A stretch of 63,301 nt of DNA, counting the filler, from Reclinomonas americana ATCC 50394 (taxonomy: Eukaryota): NCBI GenBank assembly GCA_048213135.1. It is 6 parts of 2 records of this genome, joined end to end, with 100 filler letters (N's around TTAATTAATTAA, not from the genome) between each part and the next. Parts side by side here need not be neighbours in the genome. Positions count along the whole stretch, not along the records: positions 59,630 to 63,301 come from PS015018.1; 5 more parts are not named here. One strand, written 5' to 3'. Shown piece after piece: positions 6,718-63,301 of the stretch. The notes beneath the pieces were generated by a model. It did no database searches. It was not told the DNA's origin and saw only the letters and a list, made by a program, of their open reading frames with translations. A program made the position numbers and the translations under genes. Position 1 is the first letter of the stretch; the number at the start of each line of letters is the position of its first letter.

Positions 6718-6817
6718 NNNNNNNNNNNNNNNNNNNNNNNNNNNNNNNNNNNNNNNNNNNNTTAATTAATTAANNNNNNNNNNNNNNNNNNNNNNNNNNN
6801 NNNNNNNNNNNNNNNNN
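6718..6817. other. Artificial scaffold linker (N-TTAATTAATTAA-N)
   Basis: Six-frame stop linker embedded in Ns. The same linker occurs at about 14770-14869, 23953-24052, 40895-40994 and 59530-59629. Confidence 0.97.
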
Positions 6818-8025: not shown

Positions 8026-10879
<2,854 letters not shown>

Positions 10880-13756: not shown

Positions 13757-14689
13757 TCACACGTTCTTGCGGCGCGTCAGGTGATCGTACAACACCACAG
13801 TGGAGTACTCCTTGGTGGCCAGTGGCGTGCGCGTGGAGTTGTCGCCCACCGACTCGGCCTTTGGGTTGACGTAGATCAGCTTGCGATCACGCTTGTGCTT
13901 GAAGGTGAGGCCGTTGACGTCCTCGGCCAGCACCTCGAACGATGGCGAGTTGGTCGATCGCAGTGTCTGCGTCTTCCAGTTGTAGTACGACAGGTCCAGT
14001 GGCTGCGGGTACAGCTTCTTCTTGCCAGAAAAGTACACCGTGAAGTCCTCGGTGCGCATGCGGTGACCAACTGCATCGCGGGGCAAGAGAGAAGTGAATA
14101 ACAGCTGCGAAGGAGAGAGAGAGAGAGAGGTACGCCCCACATACCGTCCACGTAGCCGCTGATCTCGTGGCCGCGGACGTTTTCTTCGCGGATGAAGACG
14201 ATTGTCTGCACGAGAGAGAGTCAGAAGGGAGTCCGTTTTGGAGTGACTCTCTCTCTCTCTCTTTCTCTTCCACACCACACCTCCATGCGCCCACTTCGAA
14301 TATCGAGCTCACGCTTGGCCAACTCCTGCAACAGCGGACTGTGCGACAGGTCGTAGCCCACGTGGCACACGGCCTTGACGTCGCGTCCACTGGCCTGCGT
14401 TCCGTGTCTGGCCACTCGCTTGCGCTCCTCGAACTCAAAACGTGACAGTGCGTCCTTGCCCTTGTGTGTGTGCTGTACAGTGCGCGACACCACGCGTCAG
14501 CATCGGCGGCACACGAGTGTGCATGCGTGCGCGTTCACCAACCTCCACCAAATCCCTCGCCAACTCTGGATCCTCCAAGTAATCCAGATCCTGTTGTGAC
14601 ACGAACGTGTCGAGGTACTCCTCGTAGGAGCTGAACTTGACCACCGGGTCCTCCATGGCCAGGAACGTGTTCTCGACCCCAGACTCCAT
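13757..14689 (-). CDS. CFAP299: Cilia- and flagella-associated protein 299 (C4orf22/DUF4464), multi-exon
   Basis: FSSYEEYLD...LDYLEDPELARDLVE, GHEISGYVD, DLSYYNW, GLTFKHKRDRKLIYVNP, GDNSTRT, VVLYDHLTRRK. Confidence 0.9.
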
Positions 14690-14869
14690 TTTCTCTCTCT
14701 CAGTGCGTTTCCGAAGAATGAATGAAAACGGCGCGAGTACGGTACAAACAAATCAATCCAAGTGAGTGTNNNNNNNNNNNNNNNNNNNNNNNNNNNNNNN
14801 NNNNNNNNNNNNNTTAATTAATTAANNNNNNNNNNNNNNNNNNNNNNNNNNNNNNNNNNNNNNNNNNNN

Positions 14870-22340: not shown

Positions 22341-24251
22341 GTGTAGGGTGTGTGTGTGTAGGGTGTAGGGTGTAGGTGTAGGTGTGGGTGTAGGGTGTGT
22401 GTGCAAGTGTCCAATCTACGAAGTCTCCCACAAAACCACTAAAACACTGTGCTGGCCCACCTCATTTTGGTATGGTCAAGTCCGACCCTCGACAGCATCA
22501 ATTGCACCTCGTCGATGGTCAAACCAACGGGCAATGGAGTTGTGTGCTGTGTGGCTGGCGGGGTGGCGACGTGCACCTGTGGCAGCGGCTGTGTGCGGAG
22601 ATCGATCGCATACATGACAACAGGAGAGATACCAGTTGTTGTTCGACTTTTTGGTCGCCCTGTGCGTTGTAGGTGTTGATCATGGAAAGAGAGAGAATGC
22701 TGCAGCTGAACCTCGCTTGAGTGAAGGTGGCCATGCAAAAGCAGAGTGGCAAAGGCAATCAACATCGGACTGCTCATTTTCGTACCGTGAGGTGGCCATA
22801 GTACATTCACGAAGCTGCAGCTGTATCGCGCGAGGGCGATGCAAGTTTTATTAGCGAACCCAACGTTGGCACCTTGGTCCGTCTCATCTTGCTCGAGCTG
22901 TGAAAGTACTCTCGCGAAGATCGCTTCGTGGTTTTGTAAGATGCTGCGGTATTTCGGAAAACGAATTATTTTCAATTGCGACTTGCTTGCAGGCAGCACG
23001 TCCTTGTTTGTGGACCACAGTCGGAGTGGGGGTGAGGAAGCATCTCCCTACCGGCTCACCTGGCCACGGAAGCTTGTTTACGGCCTCACGATCGCCGAAG
23101 TCTGCAAAGCTGTCGGCAATATTGCGCCTGAGACTTGCAATAGGTCGCCAGTGCGAATTCCACATGTGAGGCGGCCTCACACTAGTCTTTAGCTTCGACC
23201 TGCTGCCATGGCCAGCGTGGCACTCTCAGCTCTGCGGATGGGATATGCCGGCGGAAATGTACGCATTTGGAAAACCGCAAGTGCTTGAGTTGCACTCAGC
23301 ATCCCTCCTGGCACCCTCAGTGCCCCACGCAACACATCTCTCTAACCAGGGGCGCGCGCCACTCTGCAGTCGTGTTTTCGGACCTCGACATTGAAATCAC
23401 TCGACACTGACCCACAAATGAATATTCGTCGCGGACTTTCGGCTCTCCCTCTCCCTCCATGTCGCCTCGCGCCACCGCTGTCACGCTTCTCGCGTCACTA
23501 CTCTTGCTGGTGCTGTGCGTCGGCTCGGCCCAAGCAGCCAGCAAAGAAGCATGGTCAGTCTAACTTTCTTCTCCTGACACTNNNNNNNNNNNNNNNNNNN
23601 NNNNNNNNNNNNNNNNNNNNNNNNNNNNNNNNNNNNNNNNNNNNNNNNNNNNNNNNNNNNNNNNNNNNCCCTGACGAATGCAAATGCACGCAAATGAATG
23701 AATGAATCTCCGCGTCTCCGCACATGCACACACACTCGCACTCACCCGGAAAGTGCCACCGCAGTACTGTGAGAGGTCGTTGCAGTTGCCAGAGGGACCC
23801 CCGAAACCTGTGTGTACGCGATGAGAGTCATGATGCACTGTCTTCTTCTCATTCTCCGCATCACATTGTGCACGCACGATCCGTCAACAGCTGGTAGATG
23901 ACACGCGACTTCCTGCATGTGGGCGAGAACACGGCGAGTGTGAGAGAGTGTGNNNNNNNNNNNNNNNNNNNNNNNNNNNNNNNNNNNNNNNNNNNNTTAA
24001 TTAATTAANNNNNNNNNNNNNNNNNNNNNNNNNNNNNNNNNNNNNNNNNNNNCTCTCTCTCTCTCTCTCTCTCTGTCACACACCTTGTTGCTCACTGGAC
24101 TTGTGTCTTTTCCGCGGCGGCGACCCACTCGCTCGCCTCACCTCTCCCTCCTCCTCTGCCTCTCCATCCTCCCGCTCCACCTCTGCATGCCCTCTCTTCT
24201 CTTCGCGCATGGTATGTGTGTGTGTGCGTGTGACAAAAAACAAGACAGTCG

Positions 24252-24654: not shown

Positions 24655-26583
24655 TCACTCTCTTGTGTCGTTGCTCATCCCGCTCTCTCACACACACACA
24701 CGCGCGCGCAGAGCAAATCCTCAAGTTTCTCGGCGACGAACTCATTGGCGATCGGCATGCGTTCGAGTATGGCATCTCCAATGGAGCCACGTGCACCATG
24801 GCGCGTAAGCAGCTGCTCTCTGTGCTGCCGACGTCGCCGACCACTGCTGCAGTCGCGCAGCGACAGCAGCTGTATCAGTCGCAGCAGCCGTACTTGTCGT
24901 CGTCGTCGGTGTATATGTCGTCGCCGGGGAACAGTCGACCGTCGTCGCCGATGTCGAACGCATCGCGCATGTCGGCCTCGTCGGTGTCGCTCGCCGATGG
25001 CCTGCTGAGCCGTTGCGCTCTATTGTTGCTCGTGTTTATCAATCGCCGCTGCCCGCTCACTGTGTGTGGAATTCCACAGGTTCTGGTGGTTCGTCGCGAG
25101 TGGCGTACAGCTCGCCGCGGAAACTGCGGCCACCGTCAACGACTCGCTCCTCGTCGCGTCTCATTTCGTCGGGAGGAGGAGGAGGTGGTGGTGGATCGGC
25201 GCCGTCGTCACCGCAGCGGCAAGCGCCACAGTCGCGACGACAGGCGGCTACACCACAGCCGAGTTCTAGTTTTGCATCGTCGGCGCCCGTGTTCAGCACG
25301 CCCACTCCTGCTACGGTCACGTTCTCCGCGCCGACTGCACTGGAGCAGAGTCTAGCGCGTGTGCAGCAGCAACGGCAGCAGCAGCGAATGGCGGCGTCAC
25401 CACCCCCAGCTCCTGTCGATCACGCTCCCGCTGTTGTTTCACAGGTGAACACACGAAGGCCGTCACCGCCACCGCTGCCGCCGCCACCACCATCGCTATC
25501 AATGATGAATGCGTACGATCGGCACAGCGGACTGCATTCGCCGCCGGTGGCTCTCGAGTCGATTCGGCCACACATGACGGTCGAGCCGCCGACTGACGAC
25601 AGCGTCACCGAGCACGAGACAAGCCTGACTCACTCCGCTATACCGCCACCTATTGGTTGCGTCGCAGCACGAGAGAATGTGCTTCCGCTCTCGTTTGGCT
25701 GAAAGAAAGTGTGTTGTTCAGTGAGTGTCGATCTGACTCGCACCTCGTCAACTACACCCACTCGCGGTGGAAAATCCGCCCCGTCCGCCACGAGACAGCG
25801 TGCATCGTCCCCACCGCAGCAGCAGGCATCGTCCGCCAATGGCACACGTGCGCGAAATGGAACCACAGCCGCCACCGACGCGAAGAAGACGAGTCTCTCA
25901 CCCCCGCGTCGAGTTGCGTCCGCTCACCGATGTATGTGTGTCTCTCTCGCACACTGATCACTCACTCACGCAACGCGACCGCGACAGGCTGCACCTGCAG
26001 GACCGTCGGCGACACCGGTGGAATCGGCACAGCGTTCCAATCAAGGTGCCTACCGCAACGCCGTCACCAATCTCATGGAGCTCGGCAAGGATCTGGACGG
26101 TCGTCAGCTTGCCTTGTTGCGTGCACAGTTTTTTTGTTGACAGTTGGTATCTTTCTCTCTCACGCACACGCTCTCACTCTCAGCGACGAGAATTACACAT
26201 GCGTAATTGCCATCGAGTCACGCGACAGCGAATCACCAGAGCCGACCAACGTGCTGGTGACGTACGACCCGGAGACCTTCCGGTTGCATGTCTACAGCAC
26301 GCTCCTCACGTCGCTGCCGACGGATCCCGCTCATCGACTGGCGCTGTTTGAGCGTGTTCTCAGCGGTTCCATCCTCGGTCGCGACATGTGTGGCGGCGGT
26401 GCCGGCATCTCGTCCAAGAACAACCTCCTCCTGATGCACACCACTGTCGACATGCGGACCAGTAACCCGTCGGCACTGCGTGTGTTGATGCCTGACTTCT
26501 TGCGGTCGCTGCACGACTGGAGGGCTATCGTGCAAGGCGTGATGGAGACCGGGCACGGTGGTGCGACAGCGGCTGCTGTTTGA
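24252..26583 (+). CDS. Ubiquitin-like domain + S/P-rich linker + CesT/YbjN (type III chaperone-like) domain protein, multi-exon; start uncertain
   Basis: Spliced LRVSKIKRYLHRFSGVPPEEQILKFLG...YGISNGATCTM (Ubl-like). C-terminal LAFDENYTCVIAI...LHVYSTLL...LFERVLSGSILG...GGAGIS...FLRSLHDWR resembles CesT-family chaperones. Confidence 0.65.
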
Positions 26584-33290: not shown

Positions 33291-34594
33291 ATGGAGAGCG
33301 AGCTGTTCCGCGACCTGGATCACGAGATTGTGGAGGCTGGTGCTGTGGGCAACCTTGCTCCGAAGACTGTGTCAGACTACCGCTACATTGTGCAACAGTT
33401 TACAGCGTTCTTGCGAGAGCATGCGTGCTGTATCGGTGAGACGAACTGCTCATGCACACACTACGCCGCACCGTGCTGACGCACGCTCCTCTGCAGAGTC
33501 CATCCCAGATCGCAACCCTGCATTGCATCAGGCTGCAGTGGACATGTGTTGGGACGACGCACACATCGACCGATGCGTGGCTGTGTACGTCAAGTACCGC
33601 GCCCGGAACCACATCAAGTACTACTCGATCCACAAGGACTTGCAGGCCATCAACTGGCACCGGAAGCAGCTCGGCTACACCACGGTACGCATAACAACTT
33701 GTTTGCGCGCGAAGCAACTGCCACGAGTTCCATTTTACCGACCACTCCTGCAATTTGTTTCTCGCTGGTTTTCGCGCGCTCAGGTTGTCGGCTACTCGTC
33801 GCGCTTCTCTCCTCAGACGGGTGTGGCGTTGCTGTCGGTCAGGCGCGACAGGGATGGCAGCGGTGTGGCGCAGACGCACAAGGAGCCAGCAGATCCAGTC
33901 ATCGTGTTGACGGCAGTTGCGCTGTGTGATCGCAATGCCGCGTTTGCGTTCCGGCGCATGCTGGAAGTGCAGGCGACGCTGCAGCACCTCTCGCCGGGGG
34001 CCCGCGACAAGCGCGCAGAGAAGGAGCGCGCGCGCCAGACGCACTTGCGCTCGTTCCATCGTTACCTGAGGTGCGTGAGATGCAGTACTGCATGTTCGTC
34101 AGTTTGCCTGTTTCTCACCCGCTCCCTCTCTCTCTCTCCTCCCCCCTCTCCCCTCTCCCTCCTCTTTCCACGCTGGCGCGCAGCGAGGGCACGGTCCTCC
34201 TGCTGCAGTACGCAGGCGGGCGGCGCAACAGCGAGGTGGTGAACCTGCGCTTGTGTGACATCGCCTTCTACCCGCTGGGGAATCGTCAGATTACCGCCGC
34301 CCACCTGCTGCGTCGCCGCCTGTTCTTCACGGAGGATGACGAGCTTGTGCCGGTGGAGCCGCACGACGAGGAGGCGCCGGGTTGGCAGCTGCTGCATCGC
34401 GTGACTGTCACTGTGCCGCGCTCGAAGACCGATCAGGAGGGTGTCGGGCACATGATCGACATTGTGCGCATGGAGCCGGCGCGCTGGTGCCCCGTGGCTC
34501 GTCTGCTGGTGTACCTCTCGTACGCCAAGCCGCACTTCCTCGAGAGCCCTCAGGAGCACAGGTCGGAGTACCTGTTTCAAGTGCAGGAGGGGCA
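33291..34594 (+). CDS. Tyrosine recombinase, exons 1-4 (core-binding domain and first half of catalytic domain)
   Basis: LAPKTVSDYRYIVQQFTAF, LQAINWHRKQLG, LLLQYAGGRRNSEVVNLRLCDI, VTVPRSKTDQEGVG, WCPVARLLVYL, EYLFQ; three GT-AG introns restore the frame. Confidence 0.9.
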
Positions 34595-34596
34595 GT

Positions 34597-34633
<37 letters not shown>

Positions 34634-34731
34634 TGGGGTGGGGGGGTGGGGGGTGCGCGCGTCTCTCTCTCTCCTCCCTCCCTCCTCCTCTCGTACTTGT
34701 TTGTTCGTCGTNNNNNNNNNNNNNNNNNNNN

Positions 34732-37700
34732 AAACAATGTGCTGACCATCGGGAGTGGCAGCGACAGACATTACGCAGTCAGTGTGCCCCACCATCGGCT
34801 TCCTCGGCCACTTCATCCCCGTCACATCCGCTCCCCTGAAATCCGCCTCCCTTGCATACGCCATGCACATATTCACCCCTCGCAGATCTGCCCCCCTCCA
34901 CACTGTCCTGTGCATCACCGCATCCCTCAAATCAGCCCCCCTCACCCGCACACCCGACAGATCTCGCCCGCTGAACGACACCTGAGCCACACATAACACC
35001 GTGGCTGCATTCGCTGCTGCCGTCACCACTCGCTCCTCCTCATCCACCTCCCGTGACAACTCAATCACCTCCCACAGTCTCGTTTGCAATCGAGGTGACC
35101 GTCGCACCACCTCGGCAATCTGCTCAACTAGCGGCGGTCGATCGTTCAGCAGCCGCACTGCCAGCACATGCTGCTGCACATCTTGCATTGTCAATCGCCT
35201 CTCCTCATCCCACGTCTCCCATGCAAATACATGTCGTGCCACACAGTGCTCCAGTAAAGACAGATGCACGAAACCCCACTGATCCGTCCCATACCGTCGC
35301 ACAATCGGACAGCACACTCGCACATGCTGGTTCTTGCGGCCGAGGAACTTGTCAAATGGTCCCTTTTCAACTCGACGGAAGCTGATCGGGGCCCCACCAA
35401 ACTCGGCAATGTCCTCTTCGAATGCTCGCTCTTCAGACACCACGCGCACCACGTTCCTCTCATGCATCAGCCGTGCCAGTCCCTCACAGAACGCCAGACA
35501 CGTCTCCTCACTCGGCACACGCTCTGCACCAAGACGCGTCTGTCTCTCTTGCTCCCTCACAATCCACTGTCGAATGAATCGGTCAAACACATCACATCGA
35601 GTCGGTCGCTGCACACCACTCGCCACCAACTGCGGCAACACACGGGCCACTACCGATAACATATATGGATTCGATACCAATGCATCCAGTCCATGCACAC
35701 TCTTCAGTGCACGAATGTACTCCTCGGCAGTCGACCATCGCACATCACCGATATCGTCATCATCACCACTCACTCTCACCAGTCTCACGAAATACTCCTC
35801 AATCTGCTCCTTGTTGAACGGCGCAATGTGTCGCTCCATCAGTTGCTGCATGCATAACTGTCCGCGTGCGTCCACGGGAGCAAAACATCGTCGATACTGT
35901 ACCGCTCCACCCAATGCCGTCAGTGCGTAATCCTCACGGCAGGTGATAATCACCTTTACGTCGCGACACACAGATGCATCCAGCCGGTTCTTGACAAACA
36001 GATTCACACCACGATACAACTCATCGTACCCGTCCAGTAACAACAGCAGTGGTTCCTCCTTCAACCGTCGCGCATCCGATTCACTGAATCCCAACTCGGG
36101 TGAGAGTCGCTCCAATGCCTCCTCGAGCAATCTCTCGTCGGCATTGCGCAGAGCACCAAGAGGCACACGCACAGGCACTCGTCGCAGTCGACTCTCTCCT
36201 GCCTCCTGCCACTGTCGCCATGCTCGCTCGGCCAACACCGACATGGTGGTGGTCTTGCCGGCACCGCTGTTGCCAAACAGAACCAGCACACGGTGGGTGG
36301 TGTTGGTGTCAGAGAGGAAAGCATCAGCTTCCGTTAATAGGTCCAGCAGCTTCTCCCTCGGCGCGACGTCACGCTCACGTGAGCACAGCAATGGCACATA
36401 CATCTGCATGTCCTTGCGCACACTCTCGTCGTGCTCATAGAACGAGAGCTCTCGTGCAGCCAATCGATGCAGGTGTTCCTCGAAAGTGCTGATATGCACA
36501 TTAGCTGGGGGAAAACGACGAACAGAACTCAGCAGGCATGCCCATGAAATAGTCAACGATTCGCTAACAGTTGCACAAACCATGCCGCACTTGCTTCAAG
36601 TGATCTCTCGCTGTGGCCTTGACTCGTTCGTCAACATGGAGGAGGTCGCAGAGCATACCAAGCTGTCCGTTGCTTCCGTCGGTTCCCAGCCAAAGGTTGA
36701 CCTCTGGTGCCAAATTGTGCGTGCCAGATCGATGCACGACCTCATTGCGGAAGCCACGAAGGCGATCAATAACCCCACGCTGCAAGCGTCACGGATAGTA
36801 TACACGTGTCAGTGGAGCTGCATTCTTTCCACTTGTCATGATGGCGGGGATGGAAACGCACTTCGATAGTATCGCTCATGAGGAGTTCGTGCCTATCGCT
36901 GTCGTCGACGTCGACTCCACCATGGAGGAGAAGGGAGCACACCAGCATGAAGCTGAAGGCTGAGCAGCTGGGAGCCGATGTGCGTCCGGAGGCCTCAAAC
37001 TCCTCCATCCACTTCTGCAGCGCCAACTTGTCCGCAGCGTCAACAACCATGACCCGACCAGTGCGCGACCGCAGCCTAGCGACACAATACACACAGGGAA
37101 TAACATATTAGTTGGTGACAATTTTCACACCTCTCTTTGTCAAGCTACAAAACGCAACCGACGCGGCGGATCTGGCTTGTACCACTCGGTGACTCTGACA
37201 TCGAATGCACGACAGAAGTCGGGAAGGAGTCGCTGCAGTCGGATTCGCAGCAACTCGGTGACAATGTCCAACGCTGTCGACAATCGTCCATAGTTGATGA
37301 CGCCAACCTGGAACGTGAAACTGGCAGAGTCGCGCCCATATGCACCGTGTGAAAACCGTGCGCTGCTAGTTACCGCATGAGCGGTGTCAGCAGTGGACTC
37401 GGAGGTGTCTCCAGTCCTCGCCTGCTGCTCGGCGATGCTGTTGCGGACAGAGTGGATTGTCGGTTGAGAAGAAAGTATGCGCACACGAGCTTGTGGAAGG
37501 AACATTGCGCAACGTTGATTCGCCCACTTTCACCACAAACGTGGTGCCCGGGTTGAAACGGTGCAGGGTGGCACTTGTTGAGAAGGCCTTGGGCTTCAGC
37601 ACCTCCACAATGTGCAACGACTGATTCCCAGTCGTCTCACGCAACGCCTCGGTGGCGGCCGCGATAAACTGCGCTGCAGTGGACGAACGCTGTAGTCCGC

Positions 37701-40894: not shown

Positions 40895-40994
40895 NNNNNN
40901 NNNNNNNNNNNNNNNNNNNNNNNNNNNNNNNNNNNNNNTTAATTAATTAANNNNNNNNNNNNNNNNNNNNNNNNNNNNNNNNNNNNNNNNNNNN

Positions 40995-59529: not shown

Positions 59530-59629
59530 NNNNNNNNNNNNNNNNNNNNNNNNNNNNNNNNNNNNNNNNNNNNTTAATTAATTAANNNNNNNNNNNNNNN
59601 NNNNNNNNNNNNNNNNNNNNNNNNNNNNN

Positions 59630-62025
59630 CACACACAGCTGAGCGATCGAGAGGACGCACGAACAATGTCTTGACAAATACATGCACACGCACCCGCGGC
59701 ATATCCATGATCGACACACAGAGCCGTGCACGCACTGACGAAGGGGTCGACATTGACGAGGTCGGTGACCAGCGCGCGACTGTGCGCCCATTCGGCCAGC
59801 GGCGCCCGTCGTCTGGTCGACGCGATTGGCGCAAACGGCTGCGTGTAGTACGACGGCAGCGGTGGCACGAGTCGGTGCATGTCGGCCGGATGCGCATCGA
59901 GGTGCTGCGAGGTGGAATGAAAAAAGTGAGACGCTGCGGGCACGACAACAACAACAACAAGGAGGCCGCAGTACGCACTCTCATGTACGAGGTGAAAAAG
60001 TCAGACGAATGCAGACTCTCCTCGGCCACCAGCGTGTCCACCAGCGTGATCGCCGCCAACGCCTCCTGCAGGTTCTCCTGCACGAATTCCACGTTGCCCT
60101 CCGACACTTGGAGAAGCCAGTTTTCCACTGGGGCGAAGGTGAAGGAGAAAATGAGGAGGAGGAGGAGGAGGAGGAGAGGCAGGAGGAGGCGGAGGAGGCG
60201 GAGGACGAGGAAGAGGAAGAGGAAGGAGGAGGAGGAGGAGGAGGAAGGAGGAGGAGGAGGAGGAGGAGGAGGAGGANNNNNNNNNNNNNNNNNNNNNNNN
60301 NNNNNNNNNNNNNNNNNNNNNNNNNNNNNNNNNNNNNNNNNNNNNNNNNNNNNNNNNNNNNNNNNNNNNNNNNNNNNNNNNNNNNNNNNNNNNNNNNNNN
60401 NNNNNNNNNNNNNNNNNNNNNNNNNNNNNNNNNNNNNNNNNNNNNNNNNNNNNNNNNNNNNNNNNNNNNNNNNNNNNNNNNNNNNNNNNNNNNNNNNNNN
60501 NNNNNNNNNNNNNNNNNNNNNNNNNNNNNNNNNNNNNNNNNNNNNNNNNNNNNNNNNNNNNNNNNNNNNNNNNNNNNNNNNNNNNNNNNNNNNNNNNNNN
60601 NNNNNNNNNNNNNNNNNNNNNNNNNNNNNNNNNNNNNNNNNNNNNNNNNNNNNNNNNNNNNNNNNNNNNNNNNNNNNNNNNNNNNNNNNNNNNNNNNNNN
60701 NNNNNNNNNNNNNNNNNNNNNNNNNNNNNNNNNNNNNNNNNNNNNNNNNNNNNNNNNNNNNNNNNNNNNNNNNNNNNNNNNNNNNNNNNNNNNNNNNNNN
60801 NNNNNNNNNNNNNNNNNNNNNNNNNNNNNNNNNNNNNNNNNNNNNNNNNNNNNNNNNNNNNNNNNNNNNNNNNNNNNNNNNNNNNNNNNNNNNNNNNNNN
60901 NNNNNNNNNNNNNNNNNNNNNNNNNNNNNNNNNNNNNNNNNNNNNNNNNNNNNNNNNNNNNNNNNNNNNNNNNNNNNNNNNNNNNNNNNNNNNNNNNNNN
61001 NNNNNNNNNNNNNNNNNNNNNNNNNNNNNNNNNNNNNNNNNNNNNNNNNNNNNNNNNNNNNNNNNNNNNNNNNNNNNNNNNNNNNNNNNNNNNNNNNNNN
61101 NNNNNNNNNNNNNNNNNNNNNNNNNNNNNNNNNNNNNNNNNNNNNNNNNNNNNNNNNNNNNNNNNNNNNNNNNNNNNNNNNNNNNNNNNNNNNNNNNNNN
61201 GGGCAGGAGGAGGCGGAGGAGGAGGAGGACGAGGAAGAGGAAGAGGAGGAGGAAAGGAGGAGAAGGAGGAAAAGGAGGAGGAGGAGGAGGAGGAAAAGGA
61301 GGAGGAGGAGGAAAAGGAGGAGGAGGAGGAGAAAGAGAAGGACGAGACCGCGGGGATGGAGAAGGGAAAGATGAAGAGAGTTTGCAAAGTTCCAAGTCTT
61401 CAGTCTTCCATCCCCTCCCGTCCATTCCCCTCCCCGGACCTTGCTCGCGAGTGGATCGCTCCGTCGACATTGCCACACTGTACATCTGTCCACGCATCGA
61501 CAGCGTGTGCTGCGTCGCCTGACGCGGTGCACGATGCGACAGCGTTCGCGGGTGAGTTACGTGATACGCCTGATCGGCCACCGAGATGGTGAGATGATGC
61601 TCGGCGAGCAGATTCAGTGAGTAGGCCCATATCTCATCGCGATAGTGCTGCAGATGCGGGTATGGATGAAGCGCCTCCTCCACTGATCACACGAGACAAG
61701 TCAAAAAAATCAATCAATCACACATGCATGCACCTGTTTCTCTTTCTTCGTTTTTCTTTGTCTCTCACTCACCTGCCTCCATCAGTGTGACGTGATGATT
61801 GTGGAACACCACATAGATGGGAGTGTCGGGCTCTCCTGCAATGTCGCTCTTCACGCTGACAAATGTCGACTGCACATTGGCGAGCGTCCATGGTCGCACG
61901 AGTGCGTCTGCGTGTTGTTGTGCAGTGGCGCACTGTGTGACACTGAGGAGTAGGAGCAGCAGGGGGAGGAGGAGAAAGAGAGAGGAGCGCGCGAAGGAGT
62001 GCATGAACGAAAACGAACCGAACAT
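59630..62025 (-). CDS. Putative secreted protein of unknown function, fragmented
   Basis: Signal-peptide-like SSLFLLLPLLLLLLSVTQCATA, then short exons with GT-AG boundaries; large gap. Confidence 0.45.
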
Positions 62026-62366
62026 ACGACTGTCCCGCTGTCTCTTTCTCTCTTCCTCTGGTGAAGTCTGCAGTGCCGGAGTGCGGCAGCATACAGTGTG
62101 ACACATGCAGCTGCTTTGTGAACGCGCTGCAGGCACAGTTCAGGAGAGAGAGACAGAGATCGCGAAGTCGACGTCGACGTTGATTCATTGCATGTGCTCC
62201 TGCCTGATCCAGTGTACCCGCTGTGGAGTGTTGCAACTGTGCTACGCTGCTGCCGAGCGTGGCGTGCAGGGAGCCATGTGCATGCACGCATTCTGTTGTT
62301 CGGGTAAAAATAGTTGCGAAAACATTGCATGCTTGCACCACTCCCCCCACCCCTCACAAAGAAATC

Positions 62367-62375
62367 AAAAAGAAA
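62367..62375 (-). terminator. Putative Pol III terminator (TTTCTTTTT)
   Basis: T-run immediately 3' of the trailer that closes the permuted tRNA hairpin. Confidence 0.6.
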
Positions 62376-62415
62376 GTTGAGCACCGTGCTCTAGCAGAGC
62401 GGCCGTCAGAATATA

Positions 62416-62500
62416 CCGAATGCTACCACTACACTACAGCGCCTTCCGTGAGGGGAGGGCGCTGGGAGGGAATCGAACCCCCGCCTCGGGCACCCAAAGC
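62416..62500 (-). tRNA. Circularly permuted tRNA-Pro(UGG)-like gene: 3' half 62500-62457, 13-nt spacer, 5' half 62443-62416
   Basis: The re-ordered halves give a 72-nt cloverleaf with acceptor stem GGCGCUG/CAGCGCC + C73, D stem GUGU/GCAU, anticodon stem CGG|GC/GCCCG, loop UU-UGG-GU and T loop UUCGAUU. Confidence 0.8.
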
Positions 62501-63301
62501 AAAGAACCGACATGCCTTGGTCTAGCGCGCGGTGCTCGATACACAAGAGTGCACATCTGAAGGCCATGGTTGCAGGACGCACGCAAGCACAGCGCTGCAG
62601 CCGATGGCTGCAGCTTGACCGCGCGCGAGAACGCACTTGCACGCGTACGTGCATGCAACGCGATCGCGTGGGATCGTACGTAGTCCAGTCCACTATGTAC
62701 GCGCACTGGTCCATGTCCAGCCAGTGCTGGCATACGAGACTCGCGCACCACACAACAACAAAAACGATCCCAGCGCGACTTCGACTTCGAATTCACAGCT
62801 GCACATGTACTACGCTTCACCACTTGCACCGTTACGTAGTTCACACCCCGACTACCAGGCAGACCTTACCCGGATCCGCACCACCGGTACCATGCCAGCC
62901 TTCGTTCTCCCTCATCATGACCGGCACGCGATTCTCTCGTCCCGCACTTCCACCTCTTTTCTCGGGAATGCGCACTCACGTTGCTGCATCAGCGACCCCT
63001 CCTCGGGGTCGTCTGACTGTGCTTCTTGCGGCCTTGCTCGTCTGTGCACTGGCAGTGGCCTCGCTGGTCGATGCATGTGGAATGCTCACGCACACTGTTG
63101 CGTCTCCGTCAGTCAGTCTCTTTCACTCACTCTTTGTCACTCACTCTCTCTCTCTCTCACAGGAAATCACAGTGCGCGCGCAGCAGTCGGCGTTCTTCTC
63201 CGAGTATCCCGCGTACAATGCTGTGTGTGTGCTGTGTGTGTGTGCATTGATTATTGATGGTCGTCTAACAATCACACGCACTGTCACACTCTCTTTCTCC
63301 G

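Follow-up and report, generated by a model that had tools for sequence, protein, structure and literature searches.

How is a locus to be read in which the 3' part of a tRNA lies upstream of its 5' part? Such a locus occurs on the minus strand of the window, by which we mean the whole 63,301-base stretch of DNA that was analysed. A preliminary description had proposed that it is a circularly permuted gene for tRNA-Pro(UGG), split within the anticodon stem. All of the sequence statements made there were checked and all hold; the interpretation taken as a whole is partly supported. The locus is probably real as arranged. Judging from its sequence, we put the chances at about even that this is a true nuclear tRNA-Pro(UGG) gene, circularly permuted, single-copy and plausibly functional.

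Along the minus strand, the order is leader, tRNA 3' part, spacer, tRNA 5' part, trailer and then TTTCTTTTT. The arrangement reported earlier (a 44-nt 3' half, 13 nt, a 28-nt 5' half and a trailer) is confirmed on this strand at the following coordinates:

62457..62500, minus strand: 3' part of tRNA-Pro(UGG), 44 nt, positions 30-73
62444..62456, minus strand: intervening sequence TCCCCTCACGGAA, 13 nt, closing the acceptor stem as a loop
62416..62443, minus strand: 5' part of tRNA-Pro(UGG), 28 nt, positions 1-29
62494..62496, minus strand: anticodon TGG (proline), as called by ARAGORN on the re-ordered sequence
62469..62479, minus strand: T loop, B-box-like GGTTCGATTCC, the sole exact T-arm motif match in the window
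62424..62436, minus strand: D arm, A-box-like TAGTGTAGTGGTA, the sole D-arm motif match in the window

The 3' part contains two nucleotides of the anticodon stem, the anticodon loop, the variable loop, the T arm, the 3' acceptor strand and C73. The 5' part contains the 5' acceptor strand, U8, A9, the D arm, U26 and finally C27, G28 and G29. The spacer TCCCCTCACGGAA has no T-run or terminator, and the folds add a 3-bp extension here (TCC with GGA). CCA is not encoded at the locus.

When the two parts are swapped, the sequence can be drawn as a cloverleaf, as the preliminary description had it, with 21 of the 21 named pairs standard and the anticodon TGG at 62496-62494. The pairs are distributed as seven in the acceptor stem, four in the D stem (two of them G-U), five in the anticodon stem and five in the T stem. 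Three of the five anticodon-stem pairs arise solely between the two pieces, across the junction. The conserved nucleotides, read by eye, are in place: U8, A14, G18, G19, A21, U33 and G37, and on the T side G53, U54, U55, C56, A58 and C61. Pair 3:70 of the re-ordered tRNA is C-G. The junction lies at 29/30, within the anticodon stem, and this position is unique, because the T that follows G29 and the T that precedes G30 would each form a mismatch opposite C. With a minimum free energy of -33.4 kcal/mol, the re-ordered sequence is not exceptionally stable, as 72 of 1000 shuffles match it, a result that carries little weight either way; the D stem is missing from the minimum free energy structure.

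The earlier suggestion that standard tRNA scanners could miss the locus is borne out. On the 63,301-base window as it stands, ARAGORN reports no tRNA genes, and a search of the same window with Rfam at gathering scores gives no matches. It had also been proposed that the halves be joined in silico, and once they are re-ordered ARAGORN calls tRNA-Pro(tgg). As a null control, the same 44/13/28 swap was applied at all 108,418 N-free positions on both strands (85-mers). This produced 11 tRNA calls, and all 11 are at the permuted locus. The Rfam tRNA model RF00005 was also run against each part alone. The 5' part matches positions 1-28 of the 71 in the model (12.1 bits, E 1.2, with the 3' side cut off) and the 3' part matches positions 29-71 (21.8 bits, E 0.004, with the 5' side cut off). 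The two matches therefore abut exactly, and their summed score of 33.9 bits is above the gathering score of 29, with the ten pairs between the pieces left uncredited. The one exact T-arm motif and the one D-arm motif in the window both fall at this locus.

When introns are allowed, ARAGORN reports a tRNA-Gln(ttg) at c[62457,62890] with a 367-nt intron. The 3' part would then belong to a conventional gene, with its 5' exon about 390 nt upstream. The resulting model is poor and we regard it as spurious: it has two mismatches and a G-U pair in the acceptor stem, a vestigial D arm, a length of 67 nt and an anticodon that is out of register. The downstream 5' part instead gives seven of seven acceptor pairs and a canonical D arm. 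A conventional intron-containing gene is hardly credible as an explanation of this locus.

The cloverleaf has one irregularity, already pointed out in the preliminary description: an extra nucleotide on the 3' side of the T stem. It is real, and lies in the following run:

62464..62470, minus strand: CCCTCCC, which lies between T loop and 3' acceptor strand and has one surplus nucleotide

The earlier drawing bulged a U in this run (62470-62464), whereas ARAGORN, and Infernal on the 3' part alone, absorb the surplus base by a one-base shift of the 3' acceptor strand. In an alignment to the Rfam family cyano_tmRNA, discussed below, the T of CCCTCCC is an insertion. Three placements were evaluated. 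A bulged U in the T stem gives -29.6 kcal/mol; a regular T stem with a G-U pair and an extra C before the acceptor strand gives -30.4 kcal/mol; and the shifted acceptor stem of ARAGORN gives -28.1 kcal/mol, with one mismatch and a single nucleotide before the D stem. None of the three gives a regular cloverleaf; a run of six bases in place of seven would do so. The surplus nucleotide may be a true defect of the gene or may stem from an indel error.

The last point concerns the quality of the assembly. As a draft pseudo-scaffold, the window contains 24 N runs, including five pairs that flank TTAATTAATTAA contig linkers, and a 924-nt gap lies 1.2 kb from the locus. In such a fragmented draft the arrangement might be an artefact, for example of mis-joined or collapsed reads from ordinary tandem tRNA-Pro genes, and the surplus base sits in a C-rich run, which would be prone to indels. 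The locus, however, lies inside 2,101 uninterrupted bases. Its flanks are unique in the window, and they form an imperfect, bulged inverted repeat, which a mis-join would not be expected to produce. Had tandem genes been collapsed, the flanks should retain remnants of tRNA, and none can be detected there. The earlier observation that no other half lies nearby holds for the 801 nt upstream, where the window ends, and for the 1,216 nt downstream, where the assembly gap starts. A search of the window for a second copy of the locus, the leader or the trailer found none, the longest other match being 18 nt, and a multi-copy or foldback element was accordingly rejected. We consider an assembly artefact very improbable.

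The leader and trailer pair with each other, and the trailer is followed by a run of T:

62507..62537, minus strand: leader strand of the helix (GAGCACCG...CTAG...GGC.TGTCGG), 31 nt, from folds
62501..62506, minus strand: 6-nt linker TTCTTT, from the leader helix to position 30, unpaired in all folds
62410..62415, minus strand: 6-nt linker TATATT, from position 29 to the trailer helix, unpaired in all folds
62379..62409, minus strand: trailer strand of the helix (CTGACGGCC...CTAG...CGGTGCTC), 31 nt, from folds and inverted repeat I5
62367..62375, minus strand: T-run TTTCTTTTT, candidate RNA polymerase III terminator, 3 nt past the helix
62357..62365, minus strand: second T-rich copy (ATTTCTTTG), following the first T-run

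The pairing of leader with trailer is seen in unconstrained, cloverleaf-constrained and duplex folds, and the helix survives when the cloverleaf is enforced. The duplex formed by the 40-nt flanks has an energy of -38.5 kcal/mol, which is reached by none of 1000 shuffles and by 14 of 3000 window pairs with the same spacing. The fold of the 165-nt precursor has a z score of -3.69, and none of 200 dinucleotide shuffles folds as well. The inverted repeat is imperfect (88% over 16 nt, and bulged), as natural sequences are. The helix stops 6 nt short of each processing site, that of the 3' part being presumably the 3' end of the TTCTTT linker. As predicted by folding, the helix would bring the two processing sites together, and this fits a transcribed precursor. 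Of 15,515 control positions, 246 have a run of five T in the matching +30..+60 interval. The 83 nt upstream contain no TATA-like element, and the B-box lies upstream of the A-box.

By eye, the flanks bear some resemblance to decayed tRNA halves. The alignments are not significant: for the leader against the 5' part, 373 of 2000 shuffles score as well, and for the trailer against the 3' part, 1946 of 2000. The flanks are thus not decayed halves, and the helix is not a leftover of tRNA stems. The lack of similarity between the flanks and the missing halves also argues against two half-decayed tandem genes.

The junction itself was then searched for the motif expected of a permuted pre-tRNA. In passages of the reviews, maturation of permuted tRNAs is tied to a bulge-helix-bulge and the tRNA splicing endonuclease, and in the permuted pre-tRNAs described there the bulge-helix-bulge at the junction is the recognition element of that enzyme. 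No strict 3-4-3 bulge-helix-bulge is present at the processing sites. For the central helix, four leader nucleotides would have to pair with ATTC, the exon sequence just 5' of the cut, and they do not. When the search was relaxed to allow bulges of 2-6 nt and a central helix of 3-6 bp, 18 combinations turned up, none of them convincing; in the best, UCGG pairs weakly with UCGG and the cuts fall at the ends of the helix. Anywhere between the two strands, four strict motifs are observed against 3.21 expected from shuffles, with none at the junction. Since the motif is absent from the junction, maturation by the known route is unsupported, and in a functional gene the step that removes the ends would have to differ from that described for the algal and archaeal permuted tRNAs. 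One review of permuted tRNA genes names a 'no H' class.

These features can also be taken to indicate a relic. The main rival to a functional gene is a recent rearrangement that left a tRNA-Pro(UGG) gene non-functional: the locus would not be processed into a tRNA, and a conventional gene elsewhere would supply tRNA-Pro(UGG). The rearrangement could have come about by excision of a unit from a tandem pair, or by re-insertion of a circular tRNA-derived copy. A single break of such a circle or tandem unit would give exactly complementary halves with no need for selection. The irregular cloverleaf that results from the surplus nucleotide would fit this origin, as would the lack of both a bulge-helix-bulge and an upstream TATA-like element, and permuted tRNA genes are known from few lineages in the passages of the literature that list them. 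A relic, however, leaves unexplained a helix of -38.5 kcal/mol that stands 6 nt from both ends and is so seldom equalled in shuffles and controls, and also the T-run 3 nt past the helix. With 21 of 21 stem pairs and the conserved nucleotides intact, a relic would have to be very recent. We consider this explanation rather unlikely.

Returning to a functional permuted gene, we infer transcription, two cleavages, ligation and function from the anatomy, the helix and the T-run, along the following lines. The transcript would be about 170 nt long, starting just upstream of 62537 and ending at the T-run at 62375-62367. Within this precursor, the 13-nt spacer would form a loop that closes the acceptor stem, and both the T arm and the D arm would fold normally. 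The leader-trailer helix, of about 23 pairs, would hold position 29, where the downstream piece has its 3' end, beside position 30, where the upstream piece has its 5' end, with strand 39-43 as the bridge. The leader and trailer would be cut off flush with the anticodon stem and the 29/30 nick would be sealed, to give a circular intermediate. RNase P and tRNase Z would then open the acceptor loop, and CCA would be added. The ends might be removed by an endonuclease with other requirements, or by trimming of the two 6-nt single strands with sealing of the nick.

It is possible, and we put it forward tentatively, that the locus represents a new type of permuted tRNA gene and is functional. It would have the first junction within a helix (in the anticodon stem, at 29/30), would be the first for proline, would come from a flagellate eukaryote not evidently among the known red and green algae, and would have ends that are docked by a helix and joined without a bulge-helix-bulge. 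According to one sentence of a review, crenarchaeal tRNA introns or split sites occur in the anticodon arm. The preliminary description gave junctions at 20/21, 37/38, 50/51 and 59/60 for permuted genes and suggested that 29/30 may be new. The junctions it gave match Table 1 of a 2014 review, which adds 15/16; this table holds 34 permuted tRNA genes, none of them for proline. The junction type 29/30 is absent from that table and from the junctions described in the relevant passages of the reviews of permuted tRNA genes. To that extent the suggestion stands, whereas the known route of maturation, which had been cited along with it, finds no bulge-helix-bulge here. Further lineages are added by a 2015 paper on nucleomorphs, a preprint of 2025 on Auxenochlorella and a review of 2026. 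The passages of these three give no junction types beyond Table 1; Figure S1 of the preprint, which depicts the permuted genes of Auxenochlorella, may include a 29/30 junction or a tRNA-Pro. In two further papers of 2026, permuted tRNAs appear only in a methods passage and the reference list.

According to the same passages, permuted tRNA genes are reported from few lineages: a handful of algae, two nucleomorphs and one archaeon. The species concerned are Cyanidioschyzon merolae, prasinophyte green algae, Bigelowiella natans and Amorphochlora (nucleomorphs), Auxenochlorella and Thermofilum pendens. As described for these genes, the two parts share a strand, with the 3' part first, and a short spacer closes the acceptor stem, as it does here with 13 nt; intervening sequences of known permuted genes range from 1 to 74 nt in the 2014 review. 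Leader-trailer pairing, a downstream T-stretch and the lack of an encoded CCA are also shared. The locus differs from the genes so described in its 29/30 junction, its proline isoacceptor, and its lack of a bulge-helix-bulge and of a TATA-like element. It differs too in its host, whose DNA contains introns and a flagellar gene and which does not evidently belong to any of the species named.

The long complementary sequences outside the tRNA body recall the split tRNAs of Nanoarchaeum equitans and some Crenarchaeota, whose pieces, in the accounts given of them, are joined in this way. Those pieces are encoded by separate genes, and a relaxed bulge-helix-bulge at the boundary between leader and exon is cut by the splicing endonuclease. 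Here there is, in contrast, a single locus in a eukaryote, and the motif is absent.

Two kinds of tRNA-like RNA also have a similar topology. The locus might encode a stable RNA that does not decode, with its stem kept as in YrlA, or with two base-paired pieces as in two-piece tmRNA. The missing bulge-helix-bulge would then be no problem, since nothing would be spliced there. Weak Rfam matches at the locus are indeed to permuted tRNA-like RNAs. The best sub-threshold match that spans both pieces is to cyano_tmRNA (21.0 bits, E 0.0035, gathering score 70). It covers only model positions 62-110 of 288, and the alignment runs through the T arm, the 3' acceptor strand, the loop and the 5' acceptor strand, which is the same topology, and the order found in the two-piece tmRNA of cyanobacteria and other bacteria. 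YrlA scores 16.2 bits (E 6.1, gathering score 69), and tmRNA_permuted 6.4 against a gathering score of 47. The cyano_tmRNA and YrlA scores are thus far under their gathering scores. Alanine charging of tmRNA needs a G-U pair at 3:70, and the locus has C-G; unlike two-piece tmRNA, it has complete D and anticodon arms, and no message-like region is evident. To our knowledge, there is no eukaryotic example of such a stable tRNA-like RNA. In the bacterial Y RNAs of the YrlA type, as described, the acceptor stem is closed, T and D arms are present, and the 5' and 3' ends pair into a long stem. The locus shares all of these features, and the authors of that description themselves compare YrlA to circularly permuted tRNAs. 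In the same passages YrlA has no anticodon loop, whereas the locus keeps an intact anticodon loop and a full 5-bp anticodon stem. We regard a non-decoding tRNA-like RNA as improbable.

If the locus is a functional permuted gene, it would widen the range of junction positions and lineages of permuted tRNA genes, and would suggest that a eukaryote can cut and join tRNA ends in another manner. Helix docking, flush removal of the 6-nt strands and sealing of the nick would together make up a route of tRNA maturation that has not been described. It would also be a further instance of standard scanners leaving an isoacceptor seemingly missing from a genome annotation. Should the locus prove to be a relic, it would be a rare snapshot of the rearrangement step that has been proposed for the origin of permuted genes.

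The preliminary description spoke of the host as a protist. What stands is that the window comes from the nucleus of a eukaryote that has introns and a flagellar gene; support for the more specific name is loose, with no close relative in the searched databases. For the proteins of the window, the protein collection likewise contains no close relative. The permuted pattern has no matches in metagenome contigs, and the 26-nt core of the 3' part has none in metagenome, genome and viral contigs.

Public sequencing runs were also compared. Each of 24 runs contains at most 0.06 of the sampled window words. In four of them, examined at 80% likeness, depth is zero in every bin of 62195-63046 and reads lie only on (GGA)n at about 61945-61981 and (CT)n at about 63117-63160, a pattern that has no bearing on assembly or expression.

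It is worth adding what else the window encodes. It includes exons of CFAP299 (a flagellar protein), DDX41 and a B12D subunit. A 515-aa ORF has one weak match. The best protein matches to CFAP299 are 64-65% identical, and DDX41 is 79-83% identical, to a similar degree, to proteins of a haptophyte, land plants, oomycetes and green algae.

The window is a series of small scaffolds, as is evident from the five contig-joining linkers (N44-TTAATTAATTAA-N44 blocks) and 14 gaps that it contains, the latter being further N runs of 20–962 bases. Genes that are adjacent in the window may therefore lie apart physically. The linkers and the host genes are located as follows.

6718-6817, 14770-14869, 23953-24052, 40895-40994 and 59530-59629: linkers
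8610-10707, plus strand: exons of a DDX41-like DEAD-box helicase
13760-14308, minus strand: exons of the flagellar protein CFAP299 (DUF4464)

The exons of these two genes show that the host is a eukaryote with introns and a flagellum. The closest named relatives of the DDX41-like helicase are scattered among a haptophyte, land plants, oomycetes and green algae.

Two other reading frames are worth describing. A 308-residue ORF (25657-26583, plus strand) matches the CesT (Tir chaperone) family PF05932, with an E-value of 1.4e-6 and a score of 28.9 bits, where the cut-off is 22. This family is otherwise known from bacteria, and the ORF is unexpected on a eukaryotic scaffold; it may represent transfer, contamination or a chance hit. 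In the second ORF, of 668 residues (34577-36583, minus strand), a NACHT NTPase domain (E 2.9e-9) occurs together with pentapeptide repeats (E 1.3e-7); this ORF is broken by a 20-base N run.

Small-share sequencing runs were drawn to the window by two simple repeats. The first of these is long and imperfect, and adjoins a 924-base gap.

61205-61378: (GGA)n tract
63117-63160: (CT)n tract

At the candidate circularly permuted tRNA-Pro(UGG) gene, a 12-nt pair of segments, 92% complementary, reaches past the T-run (62375-62367, the candidate RNA polymerase III terminator).

62448-62459, minus strand: arm 1, CCCTCCCCTCAC, end of the 3' part of the tRNA and intervening sequence
62346-62357: arm 2, GTGAGGGGTGGG, just beyond the T-run

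This pairing would be relevant only if transcription read through the T-run. Two T-rich 11-mers, TTTCTTTTTGA and TTTCTTTGTGA, stand in tandem on the minus strand at 62354-62375, and look like a doubled terminator-like element.
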